A DNA stretch of 64,000 nucleotides from a bacterium (GTDB lineage Bacteria; Krumholzibacteriota; Krumholzibacteriia; LZORAL124-64-63): the NCBI GenBank assembly GCA_016703265.1, contig JADJCK010000009.1, positions 226,570 to 290,569 on the forward strand, given 5' to 3'. Positions 21,366-22,503 of this stretch are shown here, one piece after another. The notes under the pieces are model-generated. The model was not told the DNA's origin and ran no database searches. It was given only the letters and a program-made list of their open reading frames with translations. The translations under genes and the position numbers were made by a program. Numbering within the stretch: the stretch's first letter is position 1; each line of letters begins with the position of its first letter.

Positions 21366-22503
21366 CTATCTAAACAGCACCTTTACGTCGCCCCAGCTTG
21401 TGGTCTCGGTCGGGACGGACTGGCCGGAAAACGGGCTGTACTGAACTGTCGCGAAGATGCCGGCGTCATCGTTGCTGTCGATGATCCACTCCCGTATCTG
21501 AGATTCGTCTGTTGTGCCCCAATAGTTGTTGGTTACATCGTAGGTGACTGGTCCCAGAGCGGCCGGCCGTTCGCAGCGGAATACTGGACCCGCACCTTTC
21601 ACGAAGTCGCACCCGTGAATGGAAATGGCATCAGCTTCGCGCGCGCACACTACCGAATTACTCCCGCCGGTGAGGACGGAGTTCTCGACAGTCGCGGATG
21701 TGCGGTCATCGATCAATATGGCGGCATAGACTCCCGCGATTCGCGAACTGTGGATCTCGCATTGAGAAGGCGGCCAGCTCAAAACGGTGCTGACCCCCCA
21801 AGACACATTTGTGATGTCGCAATCCAATATCTGACATCGTTCCCCATCGGCTACCCTGACAGCAAATGTACCACCATCGAATCGGCATCGGCGAAATGAC
21901 ACGTCCGAATTACACACTAAAGCATAGGCGCCATTGAACTGACAATCCTCAACCTCCAGACCAGAATCAGAGGGCCAAGTGATAATCCCGCCTGTGTCCT
22001 GGCCCGAGAAGCGGCAGTCTCGAATCAGGTTTGACGTACCTGTCAACGTGGCCCAGATGAGGGCTGTTACGCAATTCGCACCGCTGCACCGTGAATGAAC
22101 CCTCGAAGTACAAACCCGAAAAGCACCTAATCGTCAAATCAGAAATGTACAGCTCATGGTCCATGCGCATCATCGACAAGCCGTGATGGCCAAGCGGGTC
22201 CGACGGTAGGCTGACCGGCCCAATGACCGTGACCCCCTCGCCTGCGCCGATAATCGTCAAACGCCGCACCAGCACGTCTCCGTGCGTCAGGACATCGGTT
22301 GGCCAACCAGGGATCTGCACCGACCTCGTCTCCGTGAACTCCCCCGGGCCGATCAGGATCGTGTCGCCATCTGCGGCCGCATTGACTGCTGTGTGGAGCA
22401 CCGAGTAGTCACCGGTCCCGTCTTTGCGGACGATAATCGTCGCCCCGGCAGCAATCTCCGCCATGAACAAGGATGTCAGCAGCAGCAGGAATCGGGCTCT
22501 CAT
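21366..22503 (-). CDS. secreted right-handed parallel beta-helix protein, interrupted by a frameshift between 21967 and 22046
   Basis: N-terminal ORF (signal peptide MRARFLLLLTSLFMAEIAAGA, DGTGDYSVLHTAVNAAADGDTILIGPGEF) and C-terminal ORF (repeated C.F.G beta-helix turns) overlap in different frames. GAGGTG ribosome-binding site at 22503. Ends ...SWGDVKVLFR. Confidence 0.6.

Follow-up and report, generated by a model that had tools for sequence, protein, structure and literature searches.

Two secreted proteins with a shared C-terminal motif

The window analysed here, a stretch of 64,000 nucleotides from a Krumholzibacteriota genome (assembly GCA_016703265.1, contig JADJCK010000009.1, positions 226,570 to 290,569), encodes two otherwise unrelated secreted proteins that end in the same short peptide motif, referred to below as the tag or the tail. 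The genes and their tags, in window coordinates, are the following:

21366..22503, minus strand: gene for a secreted right-handed parallel beta-helix protein (signal peptide MRARFLLLLTSLFMAEIAAG; about 379 residues in intact orthologs)
21369..21413, minus strand: C-terminal tag of the beta-helix protein, P-T-E-T-T-S-W-G-D-V-K-V-L-F-R (TAG stop at 21366-21368)
61749..62438, plus strand: gene for a 229-residue secreted all-beta protein of unassigned family, carrying the tag (signal peptide MKHWTRAILPAALLTILLTAAICGQAAA)
62391..62435, plus strand: C-terminal tag of this second protein, Q-A-E-P-S-T-W-G-G-V-K-A-L-Y-R (TGA stop at 62436-62438)

A six-frame scan for the core W-G-x-[VIL]-K finds two occurrences in the 64 kb, and both carry the whole of W-G-x-V-K-x-L-[FY]-R with a stop codon immediately after: one on the minus strand at 21366-21395 (...TTSWGDVKVLFR-stop, equivalent to ...PTETTSWGDVKVLFR-stop), the other on the plus strand at 62409-62438 (...PSTWGGVKALYR-stop, equivalent to ...AEPSTWGGVKALYR-stop). 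The back-translated DNA pattern is thus observed twice, against 0.00 expected from 100 dinucleotide-preserving shuffles of the window, and a BLASTP comparison of the two proteins aligns their last 16 residues only. Synonymous codon choice differs between the two tails (GTA/GTC, TTT/TAC, AGA/CGC), as do the stops (TAG/TGA), so that the match is one of peptides. The first-pass annotation, which had reported a shared tail on two otherwise unrelated secreted proteins, is borne out on this point. It had delimited the tail as a conserved decapeptide: the tail is real, but the motif is longer, with a Glu at W-4 and a Pro at W-6 in the family logo presented below, and the complete tag spans about 15 residues, P-[TAV]-E-x-x-[ST]-W-G-x-[VL]-K-x-[LM]-[FY]-R-COOH. 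The residue at W-6 is Gln, not Pro, in the second window protein.

The beta-helix protein is matched by Pfam Beta_helix (PF13229) at 1.1e-13. Its gene had been annotated as a single unit at 21366-22503; the tail does stand directly before the stop, but the window holds two open reading frames (ORFs) in different frames (21366..22046 and 21967..22641) instead of one intact ORF. Alignment with one of the homologous loci described below (cited by number, L) places a 2-bp deletion near 22062 (AACAGC--CCTCAT, against AACAGCAGCGTCAT in L088), the intact references being L088 (96% DNA identity) and a 379-residue ortholog, P0155 (92% protein identity). The frameshift is either that of a true pseudogene or an assembly error. 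An AlphaFold2 model of P0155, built from a 29-sequence alignment, is a confident beta-helix (predicted template modelling score 0.81; predicted local distance difference test, pLDDT, 85-98 to about residue 360), whose best PDB matches are AlgE4 (a mannuronan C-5 epimerase), pectin methylesterase and PL6 lyases, the modelled body fold resembling polysaccharide-active beta-helices. In the same model, the tail (residues 362-379) has a pLDDT of about 43 and no secondary structure, and this segment contains the invariant columns P365, E367, W371, G372, K375 and R379. A tail that is most conserved, yet is not packed on the body, suggests a short linear motif read by another molecule.

The second protein has no Pfam or NCBIfam match, and a search of 5.8 billion proteins yielded no more than four homologs; T-W-G-G-V-K-A-L-[FY]-R is kept in all four, down to 48% identity, with two residues beyond the tail in one of them. 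Its exact sequence, taken from two alternative starts, has no database record, and its AlphaFold2 model (five sequences) shows mainly beta structure at low confidence (pLDDT 65, about 48 in the tail), too poor to interpret. The gene is solitary, between an AbiEii-type toxin gene (60895-61443, minus strand; assigned via locus L003, which is 95% identical) and a cyclophilin-type peptidyl-prolyl isomerase gene (62594-63310, minus strand), and no secretion-related gene adjoins it. A link to PEP-CTERM, considered from the likeness of 'AEPST' in this protein to 'PEPST', was rejected, as the Pro/Glu register differs in the logo, no transmembrane helix is present and no NCBIfam PEP-CTERM model matches.

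Conservation of the tail in the beta-helix family

The beta-helix proteins form a family of about 385 residues with signal peptides, and the tail is found at the end of 141 of the 150 best family representatives (mutual identity below 50%). These representatives were picked via the body of the protein and not via its tail, and the resulting logo is therefore unbiased. Numbered from the Trp as position 0, it reads:

-6: P (93/141)
-5: T/A/V
-4: E (115/141)
-1: S/T (136/141)
0: W (then L, F, M)
+1: G (120/141)
+3: V/L
+4: K (137/141)
+5: A/S
+6: L/M
+7: F/Y
+8: R (121/141)

The protein ends at the conserved terminal Arg position in 104 of the 141, the others being 1-8 residues longer, with extensions such as RRR or RGAR in a minority of representatives. 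In families whose members are 25-40% identical, no part of the protein is more conserved than the tail.

A peptide locked to the C-terminus

The position of the motif was assessed in a metagenome scan with the pattern deprived of its stop codon, which gave 125 in-frame matches. A stop follows immediately in 111 of them, a figure of about 5% being expected by chance; ten more end after one further residue, three after 3-12 residues, and the last is an apparent chance match. Similarly, a relaxed motif searched in the genome loci is terminal in 148 cases, near-terminal in seven and internal in two. One of the internal copies (L112:267-1757) lies in an in-frame fusion of two tandem tail paralogs, and the other (L123:1610-2935) about 150 residues into a 442-residue ORF whose own C-terminus is without the tail.

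The tails draw on all six codons for Arg, all four for Gly and all three stops, and the 40 nucleotides 3' of the stop carry only 0.09 bit per position. Although the search pattern allowed any residue before the Trp, more than 80% of the matches have Ser or Thr there. Given the free variation of synonymous codons and the lack of conservation in the flanks, selection acts on the peptide, and an explanation by a DNA repeat was rejected on the same grounds. The stop codons of tail genes are TAG in 60% and TGA in 25%, against 35% and 56%, respectively, for other likely genes of the same high-GC loci (L006-L125).

Spread across lineages and carriers

The back-translated pattern E-x3-W-G-x-[VL]-K-x-[LIM]-[FY]-R-stop was searched in the genomes of 185,579 species (one genome each), and Joint Genome Institute (JGI) metagenomes were likewise scanned with a DNA pattern, with at least 120 matching loci in each scan; approximately nine chance matches would be expected in the genome scan, by our own arithmetic under a uniform base composition. 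Among the genome matches listed, the deposited labels are distributed as follows:

Unclassified 'bacterium': 51 loci
Candidatus Eisenbacteria/Eiseniibacteriota: 20 loci
'Uncultured Fibrobacteraceae' or Fibrobacter sp. (GC 0.58-0.73): 20 loci
Krumholzibacteriia: 15 loci
Gemmatimonadota: 7 loci
Latescibacterota: 4 loci
Planctomycetota: 1 locus, on a short contig
'Reyranella': 1 locus, probably misbinned
Chitinophagaceae: 1 locus, a plain chance match (...YMFSW)

No true match to Bacteroidota occurs among the at least 120 genome loci listed. Among the matches listed, the tag occurs almost only in several phyla of the Fibrobacteres-Chlorobi-Bacteroidetes (FCB) group, and it is not specific to the lineage of the window, as had been considered possible. 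The 'Reyranella' locus is L088 (JAGNNA010000121.1, labelled Reyranella sp.), which is probably misbinned because it is 96-98% identical to the window over 15.4-22.6 kb. L088 and L071 (labelled Planctomycetota) are both short, low-coverage contigs with tail genes in metagenome-assembled genomes (MAGs) of unrelated phyla.

The at least 120 genome loci contain 134 tail ORFs, mostly of 200-400 residues. Once the tail is removed, 122 of these fall into 62 BLASTP clusters, and the proteins of the genome and metagenome loci together (237) into 105 clusters, 74 of them singletons. About one fifth of the tail proteins have any Pfam domain (Beta_helix, LTD, PPC, Chlam_PMP, CHRD, FG-GAP, DUF7901, DUF7451), and some bodies match choice-of-anchor V/J/R, PEP-CTERM (PepA, FDP) or MYXO-CTERM families. 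N-termini resembling signal peptides are present, by a crude test, in 116 of 135 tail ORFs (about 86%) as compared with 248 of 833 other ORFs, an enrichment that the first-pass annotation had proposed to look for, together with motif scans, which here find the motif hundreds of times, in more than 100 unrelated families. The opposite outcome, in which no other protein would carry the tail and the two window copies would align by chance at the DNA level, is contradicted by this number of families and by the exclusion of DNA similarity. The tail is thus a real, selected, minimal C-terminal tag common to unrelated signal-peptide proteins.

Single MAGs contain up to at least five tail loci, and arrays reach six tail genes (L030, L112). 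Considering also that the strict pattern catches an estimated 19% of tail variants (from the product of logo frequencies), we infer that a genome encodes tens of tail proteins.

The tag is undescribed, and it does not belong to any named signal family tested. Neither in the window proteins nor in 112 other carriers is the tail covered by any Pfam or NCBIfam model, a PDB search with a tail profile gave one insignificant match only, and literature searches found no relevant paper for the motif strings and nothing relevant on Eisenbacteria, Krumholzibacteriota and type IX secretion. A search of a word-indexed database with a 40-residue alignment of 127 tails, which yielded six candidates and three short matches, was uninformative.

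A substitute for the type-A domain of type IX secretion

[quoted passage not shown]

22766..25318, minus strand: LVIVD-repeat protein with a T9SS type-A/FlgD_ig CTD (LVIVD 1.5e-129, FlgD_ig 2.9e-5, Por_Secre_tail 1.6e-4)
11846..14878, minus strand: M36-type metalloprotease with a P-domain and a T9SS type-A/FlgD_ig CTD (FlgD_ig 6.6e-13, Por_Secre_tail 2.3e-4)

A hidden Markov model (HMM) of the domain, built from CTD proteins that neighbour tail genes, matches 87 ORFs without the tail, these two among them, but none of 259 tail ORFs. In agreement with this, Por_Secre_tail and FlgD_ig do not match the two window tail proteins, and CTD families are absent from the Pfam and NCBIfam matches of the 112 other tail proteins. 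In the model of P0155, only 18 residues, without structure, follow the beta-helix. The earlier statement that the tail lacks the CTD of about 80 residues is therefore upheld. The likeness that had been drawn to the last strand of the CTD holds for a Lys, the hydrophobic residues and a terminal basic residue, and goes no further: the Lys stands at -4 in the tail but at -5 in those CTDs inspected in the window and the loci, an analogy and not an alignment.

Tag and CTD replace each other on related passengers. In 15 tail proteins, the body is homologous to the body of a CTD protein, and in L113, L101 and L034 adjacent paralogs with the same passenger carry either the tail or a type-A CTD at the same junction. 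For example, the L113 passengers end in ...HIDDVYFARRVPL and ...WIDDVYFGGLVPT, followed either by PTEPSTWGKVKALYR-stop or by a CTD of about 90 residues ending in ...RRMLLLK-stop, and in L101 the same exchange takes place after a common ...G-C-D motif. A remnant of CTD loss had been named earlier as one possibility for the tail, which does not agree with its own invariant signature (E, S/T, W-G, K, R-COOH), foreign to CTDs; the conservation of this signature across deep divergence points to an independent module that replaces the CTD at the same junction. Tail genes also adjoin CTD cargo genes, and the genomes that carry them are rich in such cargo: T9SS-type CTD cargo genes lie within the 8-kb locus in 47 of the at least 120 genome loci.

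Candidate machinery and the neighbourhood of tail genes

Genes of the PorV/PorQ family (T9SS shuttle or anchor proteins of the outer membrane) adjoin tail genes in six genome loci, in two unrelated conserved arrangements; three of the PorV/PorQ-like genes were scanned and score 142-202 bits with NF033709 (cutoff 90). Arrangement A (L053, L068, L079) resembles an operon and consists of a large CTD protein, a PorV-like gene, a PF10091 glycoamylase with a T9SS CTD, and one to three tail-bearing paralogs of unassigned fold that end in ...DLG.VV..E.S.WG.VKALFR; it is possibly a glycan-utilisation locus. L121 has the glycoamylase-CTD and tail part of this arrangement, with no PorV-like ORF within the locus. 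In arrangement B, found in Eisenbacteria (L109:658-5544, L090:2-2817, L120:1-3044), the PorV-like gene is divergent from two tail paralogs, and a Rce1-like/CPBP intramembrane protease (PF02517) follows these paralogs in L109 (2.5e-24) and L090 (2.3e-22), L120 ending too early to show it. One of the L109 paralogs (2017-3288) ends in ...TSWGGIKALYW, with W replacing R. The PorV/PorQ-like genes are located at 1910-3052 in L053 and at 4267-5544 in L109, and the L109 protease at 658-1719.

A jackhmmer search of about 1.5 Mb of loci found CPBP genes in L109 and L090 only, with none beside tail genes in the at least 120 metagenome loci or in the window, and no T9SS component is recognisable in the window. 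The other recurrent neighbours of tail genes are generic, namely TPR proteins, histidine kinases and ECF sigma factors. Enzymes of the CPBP family have been proposed to process the MYXO-CTERM signals and their relatives (bioRxiv 10.1101/2023.06.07.544157; PMC11980579).

The beta-helix gene itself lies in what looks like a variable or mobile region. The GC content is lower around it (0.59-0.62 at 21000-23000, against about 0.67), and synteny with L088 (96-98% identical) stops at 22622, beyond which L088 has another tail-bearing beta-helix paralog and the window the LVIVD-CTD gene. Relatives (L126/L127) have two or three beta-helix paralogs in tandem, next to genes for an rve_3 integrase, Fic and a resolvase. 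The window also contains two full AAA_14+DUF4143 ATPase genes, one AAA_14 fragment and an rve_3 integrase-like ORF (2083-3405, 27093-28553 and 19608-20204 on the minus strand, 28439-29614 on the plus strand), and positions 4115-4427 of L088 match both the window at 28803-29114 and a region near 20000, a double match that suggests a repeated element.

What might read the tag?

In our view the tag is somewhat more likely than not a signal for sorting or anchoring that is recognised in trans and takes the place of the type-A CTD; the sorting or anchoring role is what we infer from the results above. A short linker joins the tag to the last folded domain of Sec-exported proteins. According to this proposal, once the protein has reached the periplasm, its tail, exposed and unstructured, would be read in trans by an envelope component, which would set the final location of the protein (outer membrane or cell surface, or retention as opposed to release). 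The tag would in this way do for its carriers what the type-A CTD of about 80 residues does for paralogous passengers in the same genomes. As reader, an outer-membrane protein of the PorV/PorQ family would be the most likely, and the key contacts would be made by the near-invariant Lys at -4 and by the free carboxylate of the terminal Arg; that the reader is PorV/PorQ-like, or linked to the T9SS at all, is speculative.

A bolder version of this proposal is only tentatively put forward. The tag may represent a third, minimal class of type IX-related cargo signal, or else belong to a separate outer-membrane targeting or anchoring pathway, in which a 15-residue peptide would be sufficient for the surface delivery of folded periplasmic proteins in Eisenbacteria, Krumholzibacteriota, Latescibacterota, Gemmatimonadota and Fibrobacterota-like bacteria, with a dedicated barrel of the PorV/PorQ family as reader and possibly a CPBP protease.

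Several observations weigh against a sorting or anchoring signal connected with type IX secretion. All the carriers of the tag are uncultured MAGs. The PorV/PorQ link concerns six of 240 loci and two gene families only; by a PorV-like HMM, neither the window nor any of the at least 120 metagenome loci contains such a gene. The PorV-like gene of arrangement A could act for the neighbouring glycoamylase with its CTD and not for the tail proteins, and more generally the proximity of tail genes to CTD genes may reflect the abundance of the latter in these genomes. Bacteroidota have the T9SS but not the tag, which is therefore not a general feature of this system. In Flavobacterium, the T9SS recognises its substrates through a folded CTD, which occupies the whole of a shaped pocket (PMC10994853), and a 15-residue peptide would not fill such a pocket. 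Finally, the 1-8 extra residues found in some members of the beta-helix family indicate that a free Arg carboxylate is not strictly required.

The alternatives can be ranked, starting with processing by a CPBP protease, then an amphipathic membrane anchor, an intermolecular strand or oligomerisation element, and a CTD remnant. The first holds that the tail is a signal for sortase-like C-terminal processing and covalent attachment by a Rce1-like/CPBP intramembrane glutamic protease. This family cleaves short motifs at the extreme C-terminus (CAAX) and includes myxosortases, in L109 and L090 the two tail paralogs are followed by a CPBP gene and flanked on the other side by a PorV/PorQ-family gene, and the tag shares the attributes set out by Haft (placement at the C-terminus, many copies in a genome, carriers unrelated to one another, signal peptides). 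We nevertheless regard this explanation as unlikely: the CPBP gene adjoins one tail family only, with no others in the loci searched, CPBP genes are common in genomes generally, and a tag without an invariant Cys, a transmembrane helix or an Arg cluster is not placeable in the plane of the membrane, where such proteases act.

The tail might also need no dedicated reader, if it formed a short amphipathic helix serving as an in-plane membrane anchor, in the manner of the C-terminal helices of PBP5/PBP6. Inspection of the logo is compatible with such a helix, W0, [VL]3, [LM]6 and [FY]7 falling on one face and K4 and R8 at the interface, and the carriers are Sec-exported. Helices at the membrane surface tolerate variation, however, and here E(-4), S/T(-1), G(+1), K(+4) and the final R hardly vary from phylum to phylum or among more than 100 families; the invariant Gly, with frequent G/D/S beside it, disfavours a helix, of which just about nine residues could be formed and which AlphaFold2 does not predict. 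The strict locking to the protein end and the substitution for the T9SS CTD fit specific recognition better, and we hold this anchor to be rather improbable.

Little credence is likewise given to a donated strand, or to another structural or oligomerisation element directed to a subunit or partner such as the adjacent CTD protein. A donated strand would indeed look unstructured in a monomer model, and tail genes are often in tandem arrays and beside genes of CTD proteins, but a single peptide found on over 100 unrelated folds implies a reader common to all rather than many partners, and many tail genes, including the window gene at 61749-62438, are solitary. It is very improbable that the tail is a functionless, degenerate remnant of the last strand of a lost T9SS CTD: both sequences end in K-hydrophobic-hydrophobic-...-basic residue, and paralogs with and without the CTD stand side by side, but a remnant would decay, when the tail is instead the most conserved part of proteins at 25-40% identity, has W-G, E and S/T positions not found in CTDs and a Lys register of -4 instead of -5, and occurs in more than 100 families. 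Chance similarity, or a DNA repeat that overlaps gene ends, has a negligible probability in view of two occurrences against none expected in the shuffles, at least 120 genome loci against about nine expected and confined to a narrow set of phyla, the unspecified S/T at -1 in more than 80% of matches, the free synonymous codons and the unconserved flanks.

Significance

C-terminal sorting signals such as LPXTG, PEP-CTERM and the T9SS CTDs have each led to the identification of a dedicated envelope machine, and they define a surface proteome. The phyla that carry the tag are abundant in soil, sediment and activated sludge, and almost no experimental biology is available for them. With the tag, the proteins that these candidate phyla secrete or display on their surface can be recognised; it also offers a handle for finding its cognate receptor or processing enzyme by phylogenetic profiling, and it could serve as a compact tag for export or display. 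If it were read by T9SS-type components, a linear peptide could replace a folded CTD, with consequences for the way in which shuttles recognise their cargo; if it were a minimal cargo signal, it would be the shortest known C-terminal sorting signal of diderm bacteria that does not span the membrane.

Comparison with known C-terminal signals

One of the closest systems is the T9SS type-A CTD (TIGR04183/PF18962, and the FlgD_ig-type PF13860 in these phyla). Like the tag, it occupies the extreme C-terminus of unrelated Sec-exported families in the same genomes and at the same junction on paralogous passengers, some carriers adjoin PorV/PorQ-family genes, and, by analogy rather than by alignment, a near-invariant Lys stands a few residues from the end, with a terminal basic residue. 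In type-A CTDs, the near-invariant and functionally important Lys close to the C-terminus contacts PorV (PMC10994853). The CTD is, however, an Ig-like beta-sandwich of about 80 residues, whereas the tag has 15 residues and its own E..[ST]WG signature, and unlike the CTD it was not found in Bacteroidota among the matches listed.

The T9SS type-B CTDs with their cognate PorP/SprF shuttles provide a precedent for an alternative C-terminal signal alongside type A, and, as in some tag loci, a dedicated outer-membrane gene of the PorV/PorP superfamily is found beside the cargo gene. Type-B cargo proteins depend on cognate shuttles that are encoded alongside (PMC12618676). Type-B CTDs differ from the tag in being folded domains with five motifs; in tag loci the adjacency is seen for two tail families only, and the adjacent gene is of PorV/PorQ type instead of PorP/SprF type.

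The tripartite signals (PEP-CTERM/exosortase, MYXO-CTERM/myxosortase, GlyGly-CTERM/rhombosortase and LPXTG/sortase) resemble the tag in several ways: a short C-terminal motif in restricted lineages, many copies per genome on unrelated signal-peptide proteins, passengers of the choice-of-anchor or PEP-CTERM/MYXO-CTERM type, and, in one tail family, a neighbouring CPBP protease gene. They are composed of a motif, a transmembrane helix and an Arg cluster (bioRxiv 10.1101/2023.06.07.544157). In contrast, the tag has no membrane-spanning segment, its Trp being followed by just the eight residues G-x-[VL]-K-x-[LM]-[FY]-R, Lys among them, and it ends in a single Arg without an Arg cluster or an invariant Cys. 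In the absence of a transmembrane segment, it cannot be read inside the membrane as the tripartite signals are.

The beta-signal of outer-membrane proteins, which is read by the beta-barrel assembly machinery (BAM), is also short and C-terminal, with alternating hydrophobic residues, an aromatic residue near the end and a reading from the periplasm. It ends with the aromatic residue, whereas the tag ends with Arg and has the aromatic residue in the penultimate position, and a putative outer-membrane protein of the window, which ends in ...VRWFPFGK, is unlike the tag. The carriers of the tag are soluble folds (beta-helix, lectin-like and other beta domains), and not barrels as for the beta-signal.

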